Origin: Vermamoeba vermiformis
Lineage: Eukaryota
Length of the DNA: 64,000 bases
Direction: 5' to 3'
Assembly: GCA_045837725.1 (NCBI GenBank)
Contig: JBEWZL010000106.1
Location: 1 to 64,000 of the forward strand
The translations under genes were made by a program, and so were the position numbers. Below the pieces are notes generated by a model. It was not told the DNA's origin. It did no database searches and saw only the letters and a program-made list of their open reading frames with translations. Numbering within the stretch: the first letter of the stretch is position 1; each line of letters opens with the position of its first letter. This document shows positions 6,493-46,547 of the stretch, piece after piece.

Positions 6493-9400
6493 TTACTTTT
6501 GCATGGCTTCGAGTTGAAGCACAATTTTATCAATTGAAATTCGCTTGTCAGGTGCCATATGCCAGCACTCTTTCATCAGCTGTGCAAGCTCTGAAGGACA
6601 CGAGGATGGAATGCTTGGTGTGAGTCCATTATCGCGAATCAGTCTACCAACCTCGATTGGATCTGCTTCTGCATGTGGCTCTGATTGTGCGATGACTTCG
6701 TACATTAGCACACCAAACGACCAGATATCTGCAAACAGAATATTAGTATCTCAATGCAGAAGTTCAATAATATTTGCAGCACATACCAGACTTATTGGAG
6801 TACTCTTTGTTTCTGAGTGACTCAGGCGACATCCATCGAATAGGTCCGAGTTCTGACTTCGTTGTGCCTCGCTGTTTGTCTGAATCGATCAATCGTGACA
6901 TGCCAAAGTCTGTGATCTTGGGCTCGTTCTGATGCAACAACACATTTCTCGCAGCAATGTCACGGTGCACAATGTTGTTCGCATGCAAGTGCTCGAGACC
7001 TTTGGCCATTCCGACGAGCCACGAGAGCTTTTGTTGCACTGAGAGAGGCTGCTTGGCTTCAAAAAGAGCGTCGTCCAAAGAGCCTCCGTTGCAGTACTCG
7101 ATGACCAAGATGATGCTGTCGGTCTCAGGATGCACGCTGAACCCGAACAACTGAATCACATTGGGATGCGGTCGAAGTTGCATCATCAGTTCGAGTTCAC
7201 CAATCACCGTTGAGTTAGCTTGTGTCATGCTGACTTTGAGTGCCACTGTCGTGCTGTTCCACGTGCCTTTGAACACTTGTCCGCTTGCTCCTTGACCGAG
7301 CTGATCACCGAACTTGATGCTCTCGAAGGGAATGAACCATTGGCCGTACTTGCCTGCGAGACCAATCATCTTATCAGAGCCGCCTTGTCTTCTCCTTCGC
7401 TTATTTCTTCGAACTAAAAAGAACACAAGGAGTGCCGTGGCAATGAGTGCCGCACCGATGGGCACAACAATCACGACAATGAATTCTGCCTGAGTGAGAC
7501 CTGAGGGAGAAGTTGATGGTGTCTCGGGGTAGGTGTCATTATTGGAGACAGGTGGGCTAATCGTGATTGCGTTGTGCGGAATGATCATGATTCTGTCGAC
7601 ATACGCGTTGAAGGCTGAAATGCCACCAGCAATGATAGTGACATTAGCACTCGTCTCGAGCACAACTGCCGGACTGAAAGTGAAGTCCAGCTGCTGCTCG
7701 TCAAGGCCACCATTCTCTAAGTCTCGATAGCTCAATATTCCTTCGTTCATCGACAACAAAAAGTTGCCAGCGAGAGCTATCGTCGGGACCGATGAAAGCG
7801 CGTTGGGCAGCTGTTCGTACTGCCACGTGCCAGTGCGCACGTCGTAGATGTAAAGCGAGTTGAATCGATCTGGATTGCCAGTGGTACCCAGAGCACGGCT
7901 AGTGATGTAGAGCCGACCGTCGTTGTGCACTAACATCTGTTGAAACACGTACTTGAAGATGTCCTCCATAATAGGCGCAGGTGCAGTCGAGTTCCACGAC
8001 GGCAACGAATCAGCTGAAAACACGTCCAACGTGTTGTTATTGGTGCGCATGAAAGCCATGCCTTGACTCGTGGGGACTGGGAGGTGCAAGAAGGACGAGG
8101 ACTCGTTGTTGACTACTGGCTGCGTGTAGTTCGTGTACGTCGTCCAATTGCCTGTCACAGGATCATAGACAGCCATCACAGTGTCCATCCACACGACGAG
8201 TTTGTTGTCTAGTGCTGCTGCTGAGTAAAACCAACGCACTACGAAGCCGTTGTTAATCAACTCTGCTGGCATGTCCGTTGAGTTCCACTCGTTCGTCACG
8301 TAGTTGTAAATATCCACGCGGTTGTAATTCACTTTGTCTGCATTCGGGTCCAACAAACTAGCAATAACAAATCGCTCGTTGTCAAAGTCATAGAGTTTCC
8401 CTCCGGACAGCGTCAAGTTGTGATTCGTGACTTGCAACCAGTTGTTCGAGTTCATCACTTGACCGTCGGCCGTAATAAAATCAGAGCCAATGCGTACTTG
8501 TGGTATTATCGCAACTGGTTGTTGTTTGATAGTATTCGCAGCACCGCCGCTAAAAAACGTCGTTTTGGTGACTTTTTGATCAACTTCGAAGATGTAAACT
8601 GCGTCAAGGTCTTCAGCTGGTATCATGCTAACTATAGTGCTAAACCCTGGTATCTCCGAATCAGTTACTCCATACAGCATGTCCAGTGCTAGATCGTAGC
8701 CGTAAATATTTTTGTTTGTCGTAGCGAAGACTTGGTAAAGCGCGAGACTGACGCTGAATGTTACTTCTATTGTCGGTTTAGGCGCTGTTGCGATCCAAAT
8801 ATCCCTCTCGGCATTGTAAATGTTGAATTGCATTGCGGCGCCATCCGAGTACTTGGTCATATAGATCACGGTGTTGTTCAACATGAACGCGTGTTTGAAG
8901 ACAATTGTTTGGTAGATAGGCTGATTGTCAGTGCTATTCCAATATAAAGTGACTAGCTGCGTGTCGTTGAAGAGAAATGTCACGCCAGGCATTGACAGGA
9001 CGTTGCGTAACTTTTCAAGTGAAACAATTGTTTTCCAAGAACGGCGGGCCACGTGGTACAGCAGAACCGTGTCACCGGCGTTTGCTGTGCCAATTCGAAG
9101 TGCTACCACGCCATTGGCTGCAATCGAAGCAATGACGTTCTGTGTCATGAAAGGAGCAGTCACCAGGTCAGGGTACTCTTGCAAGTCGCCACTCGTCATG
9201 TCGTACACCCACACTGAGCTCGAGTAGACATTTGTCGCGACATTGACGCCTCCAAGCACTACCACGACTCCTTCTTCGCTAAAAATAGCGCATGAGGCCA
9301 TGCCTGACAGCAACTTCCGCAGTGGCACCGGATCTGTCCAATTACCACTTTGCACGTCAAGAATATCGACGCCATTGCTGCCAATTACTGCTAGAAAAGT

Positions 9401-9808
9401 GTTGTAAAGAGCTATTCTCTGAGTATTCACGACAGTAGGTCCAGTGCCATAGTTGATGAATTCATGCTGGATCGGATCGTATATGTAGGTCGGATTTACG
9501 TAATGAACTCCACCAACAATATAAATATTTGGGTCTATGACTACTGGAGTTGCAAATGCACGAGGAGAGCTTAGTTGAATTGATGACGTGTTCTGTGAGA
9601 TCAAGTCGTAAACTTCGATCGTGCGTGTTGCTGTCAGATCTCCGTGTTCGAAGCCACCAATAAAATAGACTTTAGAGTCTGCTTCAATAGCTGAAAAGCC
9701 TACTCTCGGCGTGGATAGGGTAGACGTGTTGAAAGCCACTCCAGCAAAACTGATCTGGACCGTAAAAACTAGCGCAACAAATATAAGTTGCCAAATATTG
9801 CACGTCAT
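6493..9808 (-). CDS. Receptor tyrosine-kinase-type protein with Kelch-like extracellular domain
   Basis: Signal peptide, Kelch-like GG motifs (VYFIGG, IYIVGG, VVLGG), a TM helix followed by RRNKRRR, and kinase motifs GQGASG, VALK, HRDIAARN, DFG, PIRWMSPE. One intron at about 6729-6786 joins to DIWSFGV. Confidence 0.9.
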
Positions 9809-10628
9809 GTTTGTGAGCAATCTGATGATTAATTAGGGTTAGTCATTGGCCAGTTATTTAAAAAAAGATATCGACATCCAATTCACAAGTAACCCAGCAG
9901 AACACAATCGCTTCGATTAATGATATCAAAGGAGAAGTTGATTATTATAAAAAAAAATTCGATTGCTTGAATCCAATTTAAAATGCTGGCGCGAAAAGAA
10001 ACCGCGGGAGACAGCTGTCAGCAGATCTGGTTCTTACCTCCGTGTTACCAGGTTAATGTTTGGTCAATTTAGTTGTGGTGCTTCATGTTCGAGTTCAGTA
10101 ACATATAACCGCATAAAGTTGTTCATTCGTCACGTTGTTCATTTCACAGTACCATGTGGACTTCCGTACCAAATGCTGTCTAAACGTTTTGGACTTATAA
10201 AGAATTAAAGATCATATTAAGTCATATTATATTACCAATGCGCTGTATCAACCAATTGAATTTTGTGGTTCGTTTTTTTGCTGATGTGATCGATTGTTTT
10301 CGAATCTGCAACTAACTGTTAGTGGTTAGTAGCAATACCCTAATTTTTTACGATATTTTGAGACCCAACAAACTAATAATAGTTTTTTTGTAATTTTCAT
10401 GTTTGTAAACAGGATCACTAATCCACTAACTAGAATGGTAACTTACACGTGCACGATATATAAGGTCGCACTCATTGTTATATTATGTTGCTTTGTGCTC
10501 CTTTGATCATTCATGTTGGACTGAGCTGGTTTATCGAACGCAAAAAAGTCCACGCACGTACGAGGTTGCAAAACGTTCTTTTAATGAGTTAGACTATCAA
10601 AAAGATATCAGATAGGTTAATAACATAA

Positions 10629-13639: not shown

Positions 13640-14967
13640 CTGCTTCAGGCCGCATTAATTTTGCTATTTAAATATAGTGCACGAGATAATTATATTCATA
13701 CCGTACTGCGGTGTCGCTTAAGAGGCTTTGTGTATGGAACTTCGTCGGATTTCAGTTCTACCGGCAGATTTGCTATTTTATGCGCCAGTTCCGTGGTATC
13801 TTCTTGGTCTGCCATAATAACATTGCGCGGTGAATACGAGCCATCGTTAGTTGCGCTCATTGTGCTTGTGATTAATCTAGATCTTGAAATAACCCTACGA
13901 TGAATTAAATTAATGTTAAAATTGCTTCCATTAATAAAACAAGTAATAAAAATATTAATATGGTGGGTATTATATTCTACGGCTTATTAAATTGTTGCCG
14001 TACAGAAATTAAAATTGCCTGGATGTTGCCCAAACGATTTATTTCGGAGATGAATAATAATTCATAGGCCCGTTAGGTAATTAATAATATTACTGTACTA
14101 TGATATTTTTGGAATTAAATTGAATTGCAAAATTGCGATAAATAAAGTGCAATCCGTCTGCTTCACGAAGTGGTCCTTACTTTAAAGCCTGTAGTCTCCA
14201 ATAATATAATAAATTGTTCACGAATAAATACCTTTGTGTCGTGCTTATGGCCCTGCAACGACTTGTAAGCTAAACAATTTTGAATTAAATTTCCTTTCCG
14301 TTACTTGGTCAAACTCGGTCAAAATAATGCCGGCAAGGTTTATTTCCATAATAATAGATGAAGACCACCGCAATTAATAATAATGCTTCTCTTACCTATT
14401 ATAGATGCAGAATAGCTATTTTGTTGGAACTCTGACCGAGTGGTCAAGAACAAAACTCATCGAGCTTGTTTTTACGCACCCCTTCCTTGAGCAGGTACTA
14501 TTATCTCAAATTAATTAATTGGTTTATCGAGTTTACCTGACCTTACCTTCTCTTTGCGAGCTACATGTTGCGACGGCTAGATTTGTTCAACAAAATATTT
14601 TACTTTTCTACTGGCCTTATAATTTCTGTCTCCCACAATATTAATTATTTTACATTCGATTTATTATTATTTATTCTTTTTATCAGCTTCCTCAAATTGT
14701 TTTTTGACTTTTTACGGATGCAATCGTTTTTTGCCGTATTATCGCTTGGGTTTTATTCACACGAACTATACAACAACCTTTACCAATATATTAATTGAAT
14801 ATTTAACATCGCGCAAATTAGCCAAAATAGCTATTTAGCTCCATTTTACTCTAAATTCAATGAAAATGGTCCCAATTCACACGGCAAGATATTTTAAGGA
14901 ACGAGCCCGTTAAAAAAAACCTGTTAAATCATTCGTAGTAACAATACATCAACAACAAAACAGCATA

Positions 14968-16403
14968 ATGGGCAACCAATTACCTTCAACTGCTTCGCGA
15001 GCGGATGTCGTTAAATTCTACGACTCGTTGCAAAACTGGATTCCAGAAGCTAATCGCATCGATCGCGTGGAGAAGATTACTGGAGAAGAATTTATGGAAA
15101 AATATTATAAGCCTCAAAAGCCAGTCATTTTAACGAACATGATGGAAGATTGGCCTGCTTTTCAAGTAAGAGTCCTCAGATTTCAAACAATAATTTCATC
15201 CATTGGCTCTAAAATTTGCACATATCGTTACTATAGTAATGACTTAATATTCAGAATTCGCATTTTATAAATTGATAACTTTTTATTTGAATTGAATCCG
15301 AAATTTACCTATTTTCAGGATCTGATTTGAATTTAATCGTCTCATAATAATTGTATTATAGAAATGGACTACAGAGTACATCAAGTCACAAATTGGTGCA
15401 GCCGATCACACGTTTTGGTACGAAGGCAAATCAATGAAAATGAAGATCAACGATTACTTCGAATTGGCTGAGAAATACATCGCTGAGTATCGTAAAGATA
15501 ATAATATAGACCCTCAAGCTATTGGATTTCCACAATTACCTTCTCAATGGGAGAAGATCCCGTACGTTAGGTAAGCCTTTAAAAAGATCTCCTTAAAAAC
15601 GTCTCTATGCAATTGCTTATTAATTTTACACCAATAGTCTAGTTATATTAATGACATATTATTATAGACACTTTGGTCCGTTAAAGAACAAAGCGAAGCA
15701 ACTTGAAGCGGATTTGAAAGCTGATTGCATGTTCCCGAACGGGCATGACGTTAAAATGACTAACTTCTTATTCGTTGGATTACCTGGAACTAAAGTAAGT
15801 CCTATTATACAATAACAGTAACGGCACTAAGGTTGCTAATTCTTTGTTCGATCAGACCGAAATTCACTACGATGGAACCCACAACTTTGTGTCTATAGTT
15901 AAGGGCCAGAAACATATCGCTTTATTGCCTCCAGGTGACCACTCGACGATGTTCCAAGGTAAAATACAATTATTTTTTATTATTTTCAGATGCACAAGAT
16001 CAGATTCTCAGAGCGCCGAACTCGTTTTGAGAAATTTATCAAAAAGTGCTCCTAGCTATTTTGACTACCATATTAACTTCATTTTATAGGCGCTACTCCT
16101 GAGCAAATGAACGTATGGCACACCAAGACTGTTTTTCCGATGGCGGATCCACCCGAGTTGTGCTTAAACTTGGCAAAATTAGCGTCGGATCTGAAACTCA
16201 ACGAAGTGACGCCTGAAACGAAGGTGCCGGATACAGTGAAACTTATGCATCAGCACCCTATTCTAGAGCGTACTATAGGACTACAATATTCGCCAGTGCA
16301 CGAGGGCGAGATCGTGTTTTTCCCTGCTTACTGGTTCCATTACATTCATAATACTGACTTCTCGTATAGTATTACTACTCAAACATTTACGACTGATTTT
16401 TAA
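14968..16403 (+). CDS. JmjC-domain (cupin-like) 2-oxoglutarate/Fe(II) oxygenase, multi-exon
   Basis: EEFMEKYYKPQKPVILTNMMEDWPA...KWT N-terminal motif. Facial triad HYD...WFHYI and GEIVFFPAYWFH. Confidence 0.9.
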
Positions 16404-16543
16404 ATAATGAATTTGAACCAATTGTAAATATAAAAAATTCTTTAGCGTCAAATCCGCTCTATCCGGATCTTAGCCTTAGTCTGCCTTGAGCCTGAGTGAG
16501 GTGCTCTAATGCTAGCGTGAACGGATGACACTCGTATTCATCT

Positions 16544-16647
16544 TCAGACTCAAGTTCTGAAGGCCCGGTTTCGATTACCGGCGAGGGCAAAAAACGGATC
16601 TAAACGAATGATTTTGATCCGGCTCTTGTGGTGTAGTGGTAGCACAT
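16544..16647 (+). tRNA. Putative circularly permuted tRNA gene, anticodon CAA (3' part 16544-16589, 5' part 16622 to about 16647)
   Basis: 3' part reads TCAGA CTCAAGT TCTGA AGGC CCGGT TTCGATT ACCGG CGAGGGC A. Downstream 5' part reads GCTCTTG TG GTGT AGTGGTA GCAC A. GCTCTTG pairs 7/7 with CGAGGGC (two G-U pairs). T8 run at 16733-16740. Confidence 0.75.
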
Positions 16648-16732
16648 CTGGTGAATCCGAAATATTATGGGAGCCTTCTTGCCTAGATTGGCGCTCATAA
16701 TACCCATCCGTTTGTGGCTCAATCACCTTGCA

Positions 16733-16740
16733 TTTTTTTT
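16733..16740 (+). terminator. Oligo-T RNA polymerase III terminator candidate
   Basis: TTTTTTTT one nucleotide after the terminal helix of the permuted tRNA trailer. Confidence 0.55.
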
Positions 16741-16822
16741 ACGTACCTCGATCCGCAAAATAGCTTGAATTTCTGTTTTTTATTTGTTTTGTGTATTAAT
16801 TATGACTGATTGTATTAATTAT

Positions 16823-19800
16823 TTACATAGCAGATTCAGAGGCAGAAGTAGAGCTCGTAAAATCTGTATTTGATTCGTCGTCTTCGTCGGTGCTAGAATC
16901 GTTCTTGAATAACTTGCCCAAGACTGCCTTCATAACATCACGAGGCTTAGGACGGTCGCTATTAAATTTAGCAATTAGTTTCAAATTCATTGAAAAAATA
17001 ATCATTGAAATACTTACAACGCGCCGTAACCGTTGCTCGCCTTAGGAGAAGATTTCCAGAAGTATATACATTTGCCAGCACTAGTAAAGCCCAAAATACC
17101 AGGCTGGGCCATACCGTTGACATAACCATTACGTCTGAAAATATTTTTTGTTAGATCCAGATCCGTTGTCAGATGCGATGTTTCGAGGTACTTACTGAGT
17201 AATGTTGAGCATGTACTCGTCAGCAATAGTGTTCTCCGGCTCGCCAAAGACGGGGAAACTTAATCCCCAGCTCTTAGTTTGCTTAGTAATGATGCGTTGG
17301 TCTTCTGAAGTTAACGCAACCAGCATGCCTCCGCGTTCAATAATCTTCGAGAAATATTTGTTCCAACTCTTCATGTAACGCTAGAAAAACATCATTAGCA
17401 TCACATTATTATATACTATATTATGTTATACTTACTGAACAGAAACCGCACCAAGATCCACGGAACACGACCACCAAAAAGAACTTGTGGTTTGGAATTT
17501 CAGCGCGCAACCAATCAACGAGTCGCTCATAATTGGCGGGATTCTTCGTTAAAAACGCTGCATTTTGGACTAATATAGAACTCGAGCTCGTGCTCGGTCT
17601 GACACCGACTTCTGAGTCAGATCTGTCACGTGCCGATGCCTGCGCACTTTCAGACTCGTGTTCGCTCATTGACGCCATGGAGTTGCCTCGTGCAACTGCA
17701 CTTTGGATCTCGTCCACGGGAACAAACTCCGCGGCATCTTCTGCGTCACCAACGCACACTCGGCACATTTCACGGGTCTCAGGCTGTTCGGCCTTTTGTG
17801 CGAACCTAAGGCATAGTGATTAGACGCCTGCGCAAATTGAGAAAAATGGCAATTTTTTTCACGTACTTCTTGAGAATGGGAATGAACGGAGCGTTCTTGT
17901 CCTTAATGTGCTCAATGATCTGAGCGGATTTAAAGATGATAAATCCACCAATCAAGAAGAAGTCCTTGTCGATCATCACGTGATCAGGGTTTAAAGCTCT
18001 AGCTACTTCTCTTTTCTGCGCAGACTTGGTGAAATGTTGCACGTGTCCGTGGAGAGGTTGCACGTGAATGAATTGATTGGCATTTGCTTTCTAAATGTCA
18101 AAAAGATAAGAATCAGTTGACACGTGTCATATTATTTTGCCACTTACGGTGACGCCTTCGTAGAAGTGGAGGATTCTGGCTTGAGATTCCGTGACAAATG
18201 CTTTCAGTGAATCTTCTTCTACTTGTTTGCCTTGGGCAATAGCGTCAAACATTGCGGCCAATCTGTTCAAGTTGTAACGGGCAGCATCGGAAATTTGCTC
18301 TAAAGTCACGCATTAGCACACATTTTTTTAAATCGTTGTCAACCATACCATTGGTCAAGTTGTAGACGTCAGGAGCAGCGATAATTCGGCACAAGAACTT
18401 ATCGTGCATAATGACGGCCATACCCTTTCTATAATAACAAGAGATTAGTGTCATGTAGGCTTTACTATATTTGGAAAAAGTACCTGTAACGTCGCTCCTC
18501 GGACAACTGTGGGAAGTATTTTTTCATGTTATTGTCGACTCTTTGAAGCACAGAGAGCAACATTGGAGGAACAGCAGCCTTGTGCTTCATTAGAGTGGAG
18601 GTCAGAGTCGTCGCGAACTTGATCAACTTCTTGGAATTCTTCGCATTTAGTTTCTCTTCTTGCGTTCGCTTCTTCCTATTGCTGATCATCGTAGAGATCT
18701 GCAAAGATGATGATCGTTAGTACGATGACGTTTGACACGTGTCAAAGTGTCATTCGTGAACTCACCTCCAATGGCTTCGGGTACTTCAAGATATCGACAA
18801 AAACGTCCGACAACAATTTTTGCATGTATTCACCGCAAACCAACACGATGAACCGCAAAATGATCTGAGTAGTGATTCTGTTATCGTTGAACAACAAATC
18901 ATAGCTTTGAACATCTTCACCGGGCGTCAAAACCGAGTAAAGTTTGTCGAACTGTTGCTTTGTCGACTCTGGTGTATTATTAGTAATGATCGGTATATGA
19001 AGATATTTATAGGAGACTTACCCAACGACTCGAACTCTGCATCTACAGCCCAGTTTAATAAATCGAGTAATTTGCCTTCGCTGTGGGCCACTCGCAAGAA
19101 CGCATCCACAACGGTTGTGTCGACACGAGATCCCATTCCGGAGTTCAAGAACAACGCATTGACGAATCCAGGCTCGGACATCAATTTAATTAAGACTTCA
19201 CGACCAATAATTGACTCGGTCATTTGCTTGTACTTCGTACTCTAAGAAAAAAAATAATCAAATTTAGTTTTTTCGTTCACTGAAAAAAATAACATTTGCG
19301 ACGAACCTTTTTAACGCGTTTAGCTCTTCTTTCGTAGTACTTGACATTAGGCTTCCAATTATATACATCAATTTGGTCATGAGCTCGTTCTTTTTCGACG
19401 TTAACATGAGCGATGAAAATTTGACCGTCCTCGCTTAATAAGAACTTGTGTTTTTTGCCTCTAAAACTCTTCTTTTTCAACGGAGTAAATCTCTCGTCCA
19501 ATGTAACATCCCAAATGTTCATTTCTATAAAAGGAAATTTTAATCAGTACACGATCTCGAGCGGCGCCGGTTGCCGAGAAAACAATTCTGAAATATTGCG
19601 GATAATGCTTAAATAAATACTTACTATCTTGAACTAATACGAATAAATATTCTCCGACCATTCCGAGCCAGTTGACACGTGTTTCAATCAGATCTTGGAT
19701 GCTCTTTCTGTGGGAACCAACAGAGGAAATATTATGGAACGGTTGGCTCTTAGTCTTCTTAGTCATATCATATACATCGACTAGACCTCTAATACTGCCA

Positions 19801-21816: not shown

Positions 21817-24800
21817 CTACTTCATAGTAATGCGTTGACGCTTAACACTCGATGAAGGCACGAGATCAATATCGTCATCCAGCTTTCGCTTTGATCCAAC
21901 AGCTGCACTACTTGTCGTAGATGTCGATCCAGATCCGCCGTTGCGAACTTGCAGTGCTCGTTCAGCGAGCGTCAAGCGCTTGTTGGTGGTTGGTGCAACT
22001 GGCTTAGATTTCACTTGAACACGTGGAGTATTGGCGACTTCGTTGTGTTTCAGCGTTTGCAGTGGCTTGCGAACTGAATTCGCGACTTTAGAAACAGACT
22101 GCAGCGATGGCTTTGTGACTGTTGGTGGCGGCATCAACATTGCAGGTGTCATCTTCGGAGACTCCTCCGAAGTGTCATTAAGTGTCAACATGGTTTGGTT
22201 CAGATCTTCATAGGCTGAATCATCTGTAGGCGCGCAACTCGATGAAGATAATGGTGCGCTAATAGTATTCGTGCTGGTCTTCAATGAGTTGCCCGAATTT
22301 GACAGCAGTGAGTTCACATCCAGTTGGCCAGATCTGTACTTAAACAACTCCAAGCCCATATTATACATCGCTGTTACTATCAACTTATGCTCTCGTTGAA
22401 GAATCTCGTGCTCTTCTTTAGCTTGCATAGCTTCTTGTTGCAATTTGGAAAACTCGTCGTTATTTACAGCGTTCTCGAGTTCTTCCTCCAACTTTGCTAT
22501 TTTTTCTTTCAAATTGTTAATTTCAATTTCAAGGCATCCAATTTTGTTCTATAATACAACGCCATTAATACAGATCCTATTATAACACCTATTGTTCACG
22601 TACCGTCTTTTCTTGCAACTGTTGGTTCAATTCTTCTTGTTCCTCTTTCAATTTTTCCGCTTCTCTTTGTGCCTGTCGCTTTTGAACTTCATTTTCAGCA
22701 GCCTCGCCTATTAAATAATTAGTATGATACTCACTGAATAGTGTCCTTTATGTACGTACTTGTGGAAGTCTTCAACTTCAATGCAAAGTCCTGTAACTTC
22801 GTCTTGAATTGTTCTTGCACGGACTGCAATGAATTCTCCGTCTTTTTCAACTTCTCTTCGACTTTGCTGTACTTGATCTTTGCTTCGGTCAACTCGCTTT
22901 GCAACTCATAGATCTACGTATACAAGCGTTAACATCAAGCTGCCTTAATGAACAATCGTTAATATATGATCGTACCTTGGCTTGGCTCTCGTGCAAGTTA
23001 GCGTTCAACTGCTTCGTTGAATCTTCAAAATCTTTCACGCGCTTGTTGAGCAAGTTGTTTTCCTATTAAACAGTTATTATTAACACGATCCTTTATATTA
23101 TATCACTATTGCGTACTTGTTGATACTTCTGGTTCAACAACATCGTCGTGTCAAGTTTGTCCTCGAGAGCGTTGACTTGAGCGGTCTGATCCACAGTCAT
23201 GCCACGAGTGGACGGTGATTTGAACATGTCATGCTTCACTACTCGTTCCTTACTACAATAACATTGGTTAGAATTAACTGCTTTAGCAGAACGATGTAAG
23301 TTTGACATGTCAAAAGTGACACGTGTAAAATGGTAAATTGTCGTGTCAAAAATTACGTACGTCGTGGGTGTCATAAGAGCACGACTCAATATCTCAGGAG
23401 AAGGTGTCGGTGCAACAGTTGTGATGATACTAACGGTGCTCTTTTGTGGCGTGGTCGCGAGCTGTGCCTTCGCCGAGAGCAATGCGATCTGTTCTTGTTG
23501 TTGCGAATTTTCTTCTTTCAAAATTTCCAATTGTTCCTACAAGTAACAATGTTAATATTTGTACCATATAGATAGCTATTGAAAACATTATATAACCTCG
23601 CGTCCAAAAAACAAGATCCGTTACAATACCTTAAGTTGAGTAATCTCCAAGTCCTTTTCGTTTGTAGCCAGTTCCAGTTTGCTCGATTTTTCGGATACTT
23701 CCAAGAATTGTTGCTTATAATTTTCAACTTTTGATTCTAAGCGGGCAATTGTACGCTTTGAATTCTCTTCGATATCAACTTTCTGTTGGATCAGCTTGGT
23801 GTTTTGTTCTTCGAGGGATTTCGATTGATTTTTCATGTCTTGGAATAACTCTAGCTTAATGTTGACTTTTTTCAACTGTTCTTCCAGCAGATCCGCCTTG
23901 CGAGCTTTTTCTTGTAAGATCTCCATCTCATCGCGCATTTCTCTTGATTTAAATACAAACTTCGATAACTCATCCACCTGATAACCATTATGTTAGCTTG
24001 CGCGTCTTCAAAAGGTATTGGTGCGTTAGATCCGCTGCTACTGACCTCTCGTTTCAATTTCAAAATATTTCGTTCTTTCTCCAATAATTTTGCTCGAAGC
24101 TCTTCATTTTCTTCAGATATCCTAACAAAATAATATTAATGATCAAATAGCCCAAAAAGCTAACAATTGGTTCGTACAAGATCCGTTACAAAAAAAACGA
24201 AATCAATTAAAAATCGGCAATAGGCATTACAGGCAGAGTTCTTTGCCACTGTAGTATTTAATGACTAAAAGCAAAAAAGAAAAGAGCACAACACCGCCGA
24301 TTCCCAGGTAGTCTCCTACCCCAGTACTAAGAAGGCCTGAACAAGCTTAACTTCGCTGATCGGACGGGAAGCGGTGCATTCTTGTTAGTGTGGTCGTGCC
24401 CGAGACGCTTCGCAACATCGTGTTCGGGTCACTACTTGCGTAACAAAAAAAAACAACCCACATCCATATCTCGAAGCGAATAATTTGGAAATCGGTTCAA
24501 TAAGCCAAAATATCTGCTAATTTCAATCAATAGGGATAAATCGACTCACCTAGAGTTATTAAGGTTGATTGGGCTTTGAACAATCTCTTTTTGTTTGAGC
24601 ATCTGTTCGAGAGTCGCGATCCGTTCTAATAATGCTGATTCACGAGCACTAGCATCTTCAATCTTTTGTTCCATCTGTTGAAAGGCTTCTAAAGCAAGGT
24701 CTTTCTGGACTTCCAAGCGCGAAGTGTAATCAGCGAATGAATCTACAATATCGCTCTTCAACTCGCTATTCTCTCGCCTTAATTCTTCAATTCTATCGTC

Positions 24801-46451: not shown

Positions 46452-46547
46452 GACAACATGGCCGAGTGGTCTAAGGCGGCAGACTTGAAAGACCTTCGAG
46501 TTATCTGCTGGGGTCTCCCCGCGCAGGTTCAAACCCTGCTGTTGTCG
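46452..46547 (+). tRNA. tRNA-Ser(UGA) with 13-nt canonical intron (46490-46502)
   Basis: GACAACA/TGTTGTC acceptor stem, GCAGA/TCTGC anticodon stem, TGA at 46486-46488, long variable arm GGGG TCT CCCC, T loop TTCAAAC, G73. Confidence 0.95.

Follow-up and report, generated by a model that had tools for sequence, protein, structure and literature searches.

A tRNA-shaped unit whose halves lie in swapped order is embedded, on the + strand of the nuclear genome of Vermamoeba vermiformis, in a longer element that folds as a structured RNA and is conserved in a homolog on a metagenome contig (L009). The window, i.e. the whole stretch of DNA that was analysed, is 64,000 nt long (positions 1 to 64,000 of contig JBEWZL010000106.1, assembly GCA_045837725.1). 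The reading that we favour, and to which we give about an even chance, is that the locus encodes an RNA of about 240 nt, of RNA polymerase III type, that displays a capped, permuted tRNA domain in a YrlA-like topology. Because the unit sits inside this longer, conserved and folded RNA, an undescribed tRNA look-alike is more likely than a working tRNA gene. The features of the locus are the following.

16427..16438, + strand: TATA-like and AT-rich; assignment uncertain, as it may instead be part of the upstream mRNA's 3′ end (sequence)
16496..16503, + strand: 5′ strand of the terminal stem P1, pairing with 16724-16731 (MFE, RNAalifold)
16511..16514, + strand: 5′ strand of P2, pairing with 16715-16718 (four pairs)
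16520..16527, + strand: 5′ strand of P3, AACGGATG, pairing with 16705-16712, CATCCGTT (8-nt perfect inverted repeat)
16532..16542, + strand: leader strand of P4, the helix enclosing the tRNA-like domain, pairing with 16650-16660 (folds, covariation)
16544..16560, + strand: anticodon-type arm, 5-bp stem and loop CTCAAGT with CAA at 34-36 (ARAGORN)
16561..16581, + strand: variable stretch AGGC and T arm (CCGGT / TTCGATT / ACCGG, U53-A61; ARAGORN)
16582..16589, + strand: acceptor 3′ strand (66-72) and position 73 (A); seven pairs with 16622-16628
16590..16621, + strand: spacer (or acceptor-stem cap), an A-run followed by hairpin 16595-16600/16616-16621 (sequence, MFE fold)
16622..16646, + strand: acceptor 5′ strand, U8 G9, D arm (GTGT / AGTGGTA / GCAC), A26 (ARAGORN)
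16647..16660, + strand: 3-nt linker TCT and P4 trailer strand, 12 of 14 nt identical in L009
16664..16701, + strand: 3′ hairpin, arms 16664-16675 / 16690-16701 (MFE, inverted-repeat search)
16705..16731, + strand: 3′ strands of P3, P2 and P1 (RNAalifold, curated pairs)
16733..16740, + strand: T8 run, likely a Pol III terminator (sequence; T8 at the homologous place in L009)

The permuted unit and its conservation

The first-pass annotation had placed the back part of a tRNA (16544-16589, + strand) upstream of its front part (16622-16646, + strand), and its coordinates, its letters and the swapped order of the halves were confirmed on the sequence. The upstream part begins with a 5-bp stem and its 7-nt loop CTCAAGT and continues through a variable stretch of 4 nt and a T arm to the 7 nt of the acceptor 3′ strand and A73; the downstream part holds the acceptor 5′ strand, a D arm and A26. 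The full cloverleaf that had been predicted after swapping is accepted by ARAGORN, which reads the rejoined sequence (16622-16646 + 16544-16589) as a 71-nt cloverleaf with anticodon CAA. U8, A14, G18, G19, A21, U33, G37, T54, U55, C56 and A58 are all present, and U53-A61 in place of G53-C61 is the sole oddity among the invariant positions of the rejoined unit. Since all nucleotides for tRNA tertiary contacts are present and invariant, the domain very likely folds into the tRNA L-shape. The annotated 32-nt spacer with its CGGATC/GATCCG hairpin is likewise there, the hairpin also appearing in the MFE fold; the spacer contains in addition a T4 run (16612-16615), which is absent from the relatives.

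When the 46/32/25 geometry was applied at 127,796 offsets on both strands, ARAGORN made eight calls, all of them at offsets 16539-16546, and the permuted cloverleaf is therefore not a product of chance. A pattern search of the window yielded 11 T-arm-like hairpins with 16 downstream 7-mer complements, and a D arm was found for one of the 16, which is this locus. In the unpermuted DNA, ARAGORN calls nothing at the locus, nor does the Rfam tRNA model (RF00005) match it as encoded, at the gathering threshold or at E≤10. The locus is single-copy: blastn within the 64-kb window returned no second copy, only the self match and 22 matches of at most 25 nt, and in X4 the contig carrying the element has a depth of 2.7, as compared with 3.9 and 3.65 for the flanking single-copy pieces.

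A metagenome scan gave 27 loci. Of these, 26 proved to be either canonical tRNA genes or matches by chance, and one is a homolog. Core-pattern scans of prokaryote genome contigs and of viral contigs returned no matches. The homolog, on contig L009, has the same swapped arrangement among different neighbouring genes, and its rejoined sequence also passes ARAGORN. The tRNA halves are identical at 65 of 71 positions. No change is found in the anticodon-type loop, and its stem differs by a single one (C28 to T) that keeps a wobble pair; the variable stretch and the T arm are identical, and a 20-mer of this segment recurs in canonical tRNA-Gly genes scoring 60-67 bits on the Rfam tRNA model. In the front part, 22 of 25 nt are shared and all three changes lie in the acceptor strand. 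Within the acceptor stem, pair 2:71 is compensatory and two pairs change from G-U to G-C, and pair 3:70, for which the window has U3-G70, is C3-G70 in L009. At position 73, the window has A where L009 has C. The spacer, 32 nt in the window, is 11 nt of unrelated sequence in the homolog. In L009 the arrangement is retained, the acceptor stem has a compensatory change and the spacer varies freely, which indicates at the level of sequence that the permuted order is real and under selection.

The homology with L009 spans from about 16496 to the T8 run, that is, about 45-48 nt before the unit and 86 nt after it. Outside the tRNA halves and the P4 trailer strand, identity amounts to 30/48 in the leader, 17/29 in the 3′ strands of P3-P1, 11/43 in the hairpin, 5/32 in the spacer, and 19/64 and 7/20 in the outer flanks. 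This comparison covers two full sequences (the window and L009) and partial data from three relatives. In one of these, organism B, the leader 16499-16543 is without a listed change, and five of the eight listed changes fall in the spacer (four of the seven listed substitutions and a 1-nt deletion), four of these five being in the hairpin loop; 16583 G>T in the same organism breaks one acceptor pair with no compensation. A further change, 16651 G>A, is found in L009, X4, X10 and the RNA reads and converts a G-U pair of P4 into A-U. The RNA reads of a relative also combine 16665 T>C with 16700 A>G, i.e. both sides of one pair of the 3′ hairpin.

The enclosing RNA and its probable transcription

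In both sequences, the flanks of the tRNA-shaped unit pair into four helices and a hairpin, followed by a T8 run. Three of the eight pairs of P1 are changed on both sides between the window and L009, and one is unpaired in L009; P2 has one compensatory pair (C-G to T-A) and one one-sided change, and three of the eight pairs of P3 are compensatory. P4 has 11 positions, of which 10 pair in the window and 11 in L009, with one compensatory pair (T-A to G-C). At the place of the window's 3′ hairpin, L009 has a hairpin of other sequence. Separate MFE folds of the two sequences give the same architecture (z = -3.5 for the window and -4.7 for L009), and 0 of 200 shuffles were as good. RNAalifold, run on both, predicts 58 pairs, 11 of which are kept through both-sided changes. 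In a curated set of 52 pairs in eight helices, 98.1% of the 104 cells pair and nine pairs are changed on both sides, seven in the rod P1-P3, one in P4 and one in the acceptor stem; slid alignments, used as controls, gave 0-1 both-sided changes, and 1 of 500 shuffles reached the observed value. The G-U pairs, seven in the window and three in L009, identify the + strand as the RNA strand. The presence of T8 at the homologous end in both sequences, while the neighbouring genes differ, further supports an RNA of about 240 nt. In Rfam, neither window positions 16300-16900 nor L009 matched Y_RNA (RF00019), YrlA (RF02553) or any other family at E≤10 beyond noise, which was confined to the window (snoR138, E 2.9; mir-345, E 9.8), L009 giving nothing. 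As a separate observation, an inverted-repeat search found that 10 of the 11 nt at 16485-16495 (+ strand) are complementary to the anticodon-type stem and loop; this complementarity persists only in part in L009, and 16494 G>A weakens it in X4.

Transcription by RNA polymerase III is probable. The TATA-like stretch precedes the 3′ half by about 106 nt, and the T8 run follows the 5′ half at a distance of 86 nt; the RNA depth of the upstream gene fades at about 16440. At the locus, box B precedes box A. The leader contains an A-box-like motif (about 16513-16524), which is weak and has a better match in L009, and one might guess from the sequence that this motif and the B box of the T arm could form a promoter in normal order. 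The RNA runs come from poly(A)-type libraries made from a relative 90-95% alike. In both runs of this kind and origin, the depth over 16443-16604, including the 3′ half, is zero, and none of the 23 + 22 reads placed from these poly(A)-type libraries of the relative joined 26 to 27. The reads that did map (16605-16739) represent a 5′-truncated copy in the relative, which is flanked by A-runs and ends exactly at 16732; the relative also has a second, more diverged copy. We infer that the transcribed copy arose as a retro-copy from a stable RNA which included the trailer and a portion of the spacer. The region is flanked on both sides by a direct repeat, a weak one (11/12).

The 26/27 junction and the rival explanations

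A canonical BHB, defined as a 4-bp central helix with both flanking helices of at least 2 bp (eukaryotic recognition may be more relaxed), was found at or near the 26/27 junction in 0 of 306 site pairs in the window and in 0 of 306 in L009. The proposed cut 26|27 has only two of the four central pairs. The tRNA-Ser intron of the window, taken as positive control, gave four of four central pairs with flanks of 2 and 7 bp, at 1 of 240 site pairs. The pairing drawn in the first-pass annotation (TCTG/CAGA and GTGAAT/ATTCAT, with a CTT bulge) can indeed be formed on paper, but the bulge lies 5′ of the 4-bp helix, on the side where a BHB does not have it, and in the MFE fold as in the consensus fold the anticodon-type hairpin and the 11-bp flanking helix are preferred to TCTG/CAGA. 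Two relaxed matches on the BHB grid (16652/16550 and 16655/16544) were rejected, the joined products not being tRNAs.

Cytosolic tRNA-Leu is a class II tRNA, and we know of no cytosolic tRNA identity in which a class I body carries the Leu anticodon CAA; this combination would leave no plausible synthetase identity. The circularly permuted tRNA gene claimed in the annotation holds as regards the permuted order, which is real and conserved, but its maturation via a BHB and a circle is not supported: no canonical BHB occurs at or near the junction in either sequence, the unit is embedded in a conserved RNA of about 240 nt with covarying flanks, position 73 differs, the class I body with CAA fits no cytosolic identity known to us, and no read spans the junction, the last point being a weak one with poly(A)-type libraries of a relative 90-95% alike.

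A true circularly permuted tRNA gene, in which the transcript of about 240 nt would be a precursor and the product a 71-nt tRNA reading UUG, is thus unlikely. Leader and trailer helices would bring 26 and 27 together, an endonuclease and a ligase would produce a circle, RNase P and RNase Z would remove the spacer, and CCA would be added. Several observations agree with this: ARAGORN accepts the rejoined sequence of either species; the two do not differ in the anticodon loop, D arm, T arm or variable stretch, and the acceptor stem covaries; the T arm works in canonical tRNA-Gly genes; and a T run lies downstream. According to the available excerpt of the Soma 2014 review (PMC3978253), permuted tRNA genes are known from Cyanidioschyzon merolae, prasinophyte green algae, the nucleomorph of Bigelowiella natans and Thermofilum pendens. 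The locus shares with them, as excerpted there, the 3′ part upstream of the 5′ part on the same strand, the full cloverleaf once rejoined, the downstream T run and a short intervening sequence free in length and letters (32 and 11 nt here; 1-74 nt in the known genes). However, the junctions reported in that excerpt are 20/21, 37/38, 50/51 and 59/60, as opposed to 26/27 here, and the leaders and trailers it describes are short, whereas those of the present locus (about 48 and 86 nt) are long and conserved, with seven covarying pairs in P1-P3 that would be unexpected in discarded parts. Nor does the locus follow the C. merolae pattern given in the same excerpt, in which a TATA-like element is found no more than about 50 bp upstream of the 3′ half and the 5′ half is closely followed by a T stretch: its TATA-like stretch lies beyond 50 nt and its T run 86 nt past the 5′ half. 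The missing BHB, the mismatch between body type and anticodon and the non-conserved position 73 set it apart as well.

Alternatively, the element might be a functionless relic or a mobile element, either the remaining central part of an old tandem duplication of a tRNA or a SINE-like retroposon of tRNA origin, whose copies are alike through recent spread and not through selection; this we regard as quite unlikely. Tandem duplication with loss of the outer parts is the accepted route to permuted tRNA genes (PMC3978253, in excerpt), the neighbours of L009 differ, one or more partial copies with A-runs on both sides are transcribed in the relative, which has the second, diverged copy as well, and short direct repeats link the region with its surroundings. 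However, nine compensatory pairs and 98% pairing are found although the rod is only about 60% identical, and identity is concentrated in the tRNA-like head while loops, cap and hairpin vary freely. Depth in X4 is that of a single copy, the 64-kb window holds one copy and only the weak direct repeat, and the homologous end is T8 in both sequences, with no A tail. With box B before box A, moreover, the head could not, to our knowledge, drive its own Pol III transcription as a SINE head does. As for tRNA-like structures that act mainly as processing signals, these are familiar from MALAT1/mascRNA and from tRNA-snoRNA transcripts. Here, RNase P and RNase Z would release two functional RNAs, of about 97 nt from the 5′ side and about 115 nt from the 3′ side, which seems very improbable. 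A 7-bp acceptor stacked on a T arm is a known substrate of the two enzymes, the cap is variable, and such a stem is cut in M. smegmatis YrlA (available excerpt of PMC4201824); but the anticodon-type arm would be superfluous, and about 31 covarying base pairs in P1-P4, together with the acceptor stem, hold the two would-be products together, so that they look like one particle. SRP RNA, RNase P/MRP RNA and vault RNA gave no match by eye, against motifs known to us, or in Rfam, and telomerase RNA was dropped because no telomere-template-like repeat was found. The two-piece tmRNA from permuted ssrA shares the acceptor 3′ strand preceding the 5′ strand and an intervening piece that may be excised while the pieces stay paired (PMC3978253, as excerpted); it was nevertheless dropped because of identity features, tmRNA being bacterial or organellar, without an anticodon arm, and carrying the G3-U70 alanine identity and a tag reading frame, none of which applies here.

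A proposed tRNA mimic on a rod and its possible meaning

The tRNA look-alike that we favour would be produced from a single-copy gene for a structured RNA (about 16496-16737, + strand). Both RNA ends would pair into the rod P1-P3, which would open into a junction with the hairpin and, on the 11-bp helix P4, the complete permuted tRNA-shaped domain, in the order anticodon-type arm, T arm, 7-bp acceptor stem with variable cap, and D arm. The whole RNA would probably be stable and would present a tRNA mimic on a protein-binding rod, recruiting or occupying tRNA-binding factors without decoding. A point against a mimic is that the anticodon-type loop of 7 nt is perfectly conserved and the class I variable stretch is intact, as would be expected of a real tRNA; a mimic has no obvious need of either.

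A close parallel to this mimic is YrlA, described in the available excerpt of Chen et al. [quoted passage not shown] The module order stem - V - T - AS - D - stem is present in our curated structure, and, by that excerpted description, the two share a long stem of distant segments, an extra hairpin, a T arm, a loop-closed acceptor-like stem and a D arm. They differ in that YrlA is bacterial whereas the window RNA is eukaryotic, ends in a Pol III-type T run and is without an Rfam match at E≤10; the extra hairpin, furthermore, takes here the form of a full anticodon-type arm, its loop being of 7 nt, and a class I variable stretch comes after it. The Ro-binding motif given for YrlA in the excerpt of PMC4201824, GNCGAAN0-1G, was not found by eye in the rod P1-P3. 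By analogy with M. smegmatis YrlA, the cap may be cut open by RNase P and RNase Z, at 16621/16622 and 3′ of 16589, which would leave an RNA in two pieces. Pressed further, the analogy would make the RNA a eukaryotic counterpart of cleaved YrlA, or a wholly new kind of tRNA, two-piece and possibly aminoacylatable, with a live CAA anticodon and clamped to a rod of about 30 bp with its protein partner; this we consider distinctly improbable. On such a reading, the two enzymes would open the capped acceptor stem and CCA would be added, and the particle could deliver, sense or compete for a tRNA-handling activity (a synthetase, a modification enzyme or the ribosome) at UUG codons.

Y-type RNAs that mimic tRNAs have been reported from bacteria and phages. 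Among the papers searched, by title and abstract, there is no report of such RNAs or of permuted tRNA genes from amoebae or fungi. In the present locus, which is nuclear, a permuted tRNA body that is complete and strongly conserved is enclosed by a larger RNA with covariation, and the element is also carried by at least one other species and by two or three closer relatives. If a tRNA is made from it, this would be the first permuted one to have a 26/27 junction and no BHB, and a new route of maturation would be implied. If, on the other hand, the RNA is stable, it would represent a new eukaryotic class of tRNA mimic and offer a direct handle on what such mimics bind.

The swapped-halves tRNA unit and its surroundings

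Inspection of the sequence agreed with the first-pass annotation on the coordinates, letters and spacer hairpin of the permuted unit, which consists of the following parts.

16544-16589 (+): 3' part, comprising a 5-bp stem with loop CTCAAGT, variable stretch AGGC, T arm, 7-nt acceptor 3' strand and A73
16590-16621 (+): spacer of 32 nt, containing a CGGATC/GATCCG hairpin
16622-16646 (+): 5' part, comprising the acceptor 5' strand, U8 and G9, D arm and A26

The further claim that swapping the halves gives a full cloverleaf held as well, since ARAGORN accepts the rejoined sequence as a tRNA of 71 nt with anticodon CAA. On the unpermuted DNA, no tRNA was found at the locus by ARAGORN, nor a tRNA match by Rfam, even at E<=10. 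The nucleotides engaged in tertiary contacts are all canonical in the rejoined unit (U8, A14, G15, G18, G19, A21, A26, A44, G45, G46, C48, T54, U55, C56 and A58), the sole irregularity being U53-A61 in place of G53-C61. This pair is compatible with a working T arm, because the identical 20-nt T-arm stretch sits in three canonical tRNA-Gly genes (L013, L016 and L019; 60-67 bits with the Rfam tRNA model).

The permuted arrangement is not due to chance and is unique within the 64 kb. When the 46/32/25 geometry was applied at 127,796 offsets on both strands of the window, ARAGORN called a tRNA 8 times, each time at one of the offsets 16539-16546. A pattern search of the window, requiring a T arm, a complementary 7-mer no more than 90 nt further on and finally a D arm, returned 11 T-arm-like hairpins with 16 complements, of which one, the permuted locus, came with a D arm. 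Blastn of 16440-16760 against the window yielded the self match and 22 matches of at most 25 nt each. A DNA run of a close relative (X4), whose flanking pieces also map to the window, covers 16464-16707; its depth is 2.7 over the element and 3.9 and 3.65 over the flanks, which speaks for a single copy.

Two protein genes, both named by eye from the reading frame, converge on the locus with their 3' ends. These genes and other features of the window are as follows.

14914-16403 (+): JmjC/cupin-like protein gene, ending in FFPAYWFHYIHN...TTDF*
~17000-18100 (-): thioredoxin/AhpC-like protein gene (...FRGSWCGFC...)
6764-9820 (-): open frame of 1,018 aa in which Pfam identifies Kelch repeats joined to a TKL-type protein kinase domain
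24283-24401 (-): solitary 5S rRNA gene (103 bits), outside any rDNA or tRNA array within the window
46452-46547 (+): tRNA-Ser(UGA) gene (Rfam 50.3 bits; ARAGORN), interrupted at 37/38 by an intron of 13 nt

An 11/12 direct repeat, TTAYGACTGATT, at 16387-16398 and 16800-16811 brackets the intergenic unit that holds the RNA gene, its first copy being the end of the JmjC-like reading frame. It is a weak hint of an insertion scar, about 0.2-0.5 such repeats being expected by chance. A protein search with the Kelch-kinase gave four relatives (97, 64, 54 and 53% identical); an F-box/LRR protein and a Zn(2)Cys6 protein are encoded nearby.

A larger folded RNA common to two species

A metagenome scan with the T-arm 20-mer gave 27 loci. 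One of them, L009 (a contig of 2,032 nt, 45% G+C), has the permuted arrangement; the other 26 were rejected as homologs, being ordinary tRNA genes or chance matches. L009 differs from the window at 3 of 46 positions in the 3' part (28, 71, 73) and at 3 of 25 in the 5' part (2, 3, 6), and its rejoined sequence likewise passes ARAGORN. All 7 acceptor pairs are kept; at 2:71 C-G is replaced by T-A, a two-sided change, and at two others G-C stands in place of G-U. Position 73 is A in the window and C in L009. The L009 spacer, of 11 nt, is unrelated in sequence to that of the window; the neighbour genes differ too, and tblastx between both matches the element alone. Another DNA run (X10), labelled as a different organism, covers 16499-16655 with 7 substitutions and a 1-nt deletion listed. 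None of these falls within 16499-16582; the acceptor 3' strand has two (one breaks a pair, the other makes a wobble pair), the spacer five, four of them in the hairpin loop, and one further change is at 16651.

Homology between the window and L009 exceeds the halves, running from near 16496 to a T8 run that both have at the homologous end.

Table. Identity between the window and L009 by segment
tRNA halves: 65/71
Linker and P4 trailer strand: 12/14
Leader: 30/48
3' strands of P3-P1: 17/29
3' hairpin: 11/43
Spacer: 5/32
Outer flanks: 19/64 and 7/20

Folded independently by minimum free energy (MFE), the two sequences adopt one common shape. The ends pair as a terminal stem, P1, followed by two more leader-trailer helices, P2 and P3; an 11-bp helix, P4, encloses the anticodon-type hairpin, T arm, capped acceptor stem and D arm, and a further hairpin sits between P4 and P3. 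The window folds at -81.7 kcal/mol and L009 at -70.0 kcal/mol (z = -3.5 and -4.7), with none of 200 shuffles as good. RNAalifold reports 58 pairs, 11 of them kept through two-sided changes, 2 of these 11 falling in a hairpin that is out of register in the sequence alignment. In a curated set of 52 pairs in 8 helices (104 cells over the two full sequences), 98.1% of the cells pair, and nine pairs changed on both sides (three in P1, one in P2, three in P3, one in P4 and one in the acceptor stem). Controls with partners slid by 1-3 columns gave 35-47% pairing and 0-1 two-sided changes, and 1 of 500 shuffles equalled the observed pairing values. The covariation thus comprises few events, there being two full sequences, yet it extends over five helices, as in none of the slid controls. 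The RNA strand is the forward one, because the G-U pairs (seven in the window, three in L009) would become A-C mismatches on the other.

Just 5' of P1, 16485-16495 is complementary at 10 of 11 positions to 16544-16554, the 5' strand and loop of the anticodon-type stem. L009 has a 5/6 match to the loop near its own P1, and a change in X4 breaks one pair of the complement. An RNA starting near 16465 could let this stretch clamp the 'anticodon'; the match may also be chance.

The 26/27 junction and the RNA reads

The first-pass annotation had likened the pairing of TCTG with CAGA, a CTT bulge and GTGAAT/ATTCAT to a relaxed bulge-helix-bulge (BHB) splice motif. We defined a BHB as two 3-nt bulges, each 3' of its own strand of a 4-bp helix and cut after the second nucleotide, a geometry checked on the canonical 37/38 case and on the tRNA-Ser(UGA) intron. 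At the intron borders given by ARAGORN, all 4 central pairs form and the flanking helices measure 2 and 7 bp; no other of the 240 site pairs passes. Around the permuted junction, a canonical BHB was found at 0/306 site pairs in the window and 0/306 in L009; two relaxed grid matches were rejected as splice sites, their joined products not being tRNAs. At the proposed cut (after 16646, before 16544), two of four central pairs form. The pairing itself exists in both the window and L009, but it is not a BHB, the bulge lying 5' of the short helix. Moreover, the pairing is in competition with the anticodon-type hairpin, and the latter is favoured in the MFE and the consensus fold alike. Eukaryotic endonucleases can accept relaxed substrates, so the missing BHB lowers the probability of a permuted tRNA gene without reducing it to nothing.

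Two RNA runs (X21 and X23) are labelled with the same species. Their reads have 90-95% likeness to the window, the adjacent coding region included (9 differences in 16281-16415), and therefore come from another strain or species. From ~13 million records per run, 23 and 22 reads matched the locus. The RNA depth of the upstream JmjC-like gene ends near 16440, and in both runs, which are poly(A)-type libraries of this other strain or species, depth is zero at 16443-16604. Among the 23 + 22 reads, none joins the halves, in libraries of a type that would miss tRNA. The reads cover 16605-16739 only, and 21/23 and 21/22 continue into unlike sequence. At least 12 A precede the last 17 nt of the spacer, and immediately 3' of 16732 the reads have 22-30 A in place of the T8 of the window; other letters come after these A in one of the runs. 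The reads probably represent a 5'-truncated retro-copy inside some poly(A) transcript of the relative; an A-run-flanked, truncated form is the usual look of Pol III RNA retro-copies. There would then have been an RNA that reached from within the spacer through the 5' half and the entire trailer to 16732. The reads say nothing on expression of the window's gene; such libraries would miss tRNA and Pol III RNA alike. Within them, 16665 T>C is accompanied by 16700 A>G, its partner in the 3' hairpin, and 16670 G>A turns a G-U of that hairpin into A-U. A loose end before 16658 points to a second, more diverged copy in the relative.

A proposed tRNA mimic on a rod

The reading that we favour, with about an even chance of being right, is that the locus encodes, in a single copy, a structured RNA of ~240 nt, probably a Pol III product, that shows a capped tRNA-shaped domain on a rod. 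Its fold and conservation are observed; transcription, stability and function we infer. Pol III is probable because of the T8 end in both species and the T arm, which carries what we take to be a B box. The leader at ~16513-16524 has a stretch that weakly resembles an A box, with a better match in L009; as a guess, this stretch and the T-arm B box might form the promoter.

A true circularly permuted tRNA gene, as proposed at first, is unlikely. The permuted arrangement is confirmed and conserved in L009, the anticodon loop is perfectly conserved, the variable stretch is of class I, and the acceptor stem covaries while the spacer is free. Maturation through a BHB was not supported, however; the flanks are long and covary, position 73 is not constant, and a class I, tRNA-Gly-like body is mismatched with a Leu anticodon. 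The review by Soma (PMC3978253) counts 34 permuted genes, spread over C. merolae, four green algae, a nucleomorph and T. pendens. Their junctions are at 20/21, 37/38, 50/51 and 59/60 and carry a BHB; the intervening sequence measures 1-74 nt, a TATA-like element lies no more than 50 bp upstream and a T stretch lies downstream, and there is a circular intermediate. Titles and abstract openings of the papers found contain no report of a permuted tRNA from amoebae or, among the matches listed, fungi.

A remnant of tandem duplication, or an element of SINE type, would be consistent with the different neighbours in L009 and with retro-copies in a relative; it is rendered quite improbable by the covariation, the single-copy depth, the T8 end of both species and the reversed box order. 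Least probable is a pure processing signal from which two RNAs are released, since ~31 base pairs hold both pieces together.

For the favoured mimic on a rod, the chain order has a counterpart in bacteria. In YrlA, a tRNA-like type of Y RNA, as in the RNA at this locus, an extra hairpin, a T arm, a capped acceptor stem and a D arm follow one another between the two strands of a stem. RNase P cleaves one YrlA whose acceptor stem measures 7 bp, and CCA is added to it (PMC4201824). Titles and abstract openings report no eukaryotic RNA of YrlA/tRNA-like-domain design, protist vault or Y RNAs included. In the Vermamoeba RNA, the tRNA-shaped domain, complete and closed at its acceptor end, would be presented on the rod, and the cap may be cut out, leaving a two-piece RNA. 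By analogy with YrlA, the head would engage tRNA-binding factors, and a protein would be bound by the rod, whose internal loop (16504-16510 facing 16719-16723) is conserved.
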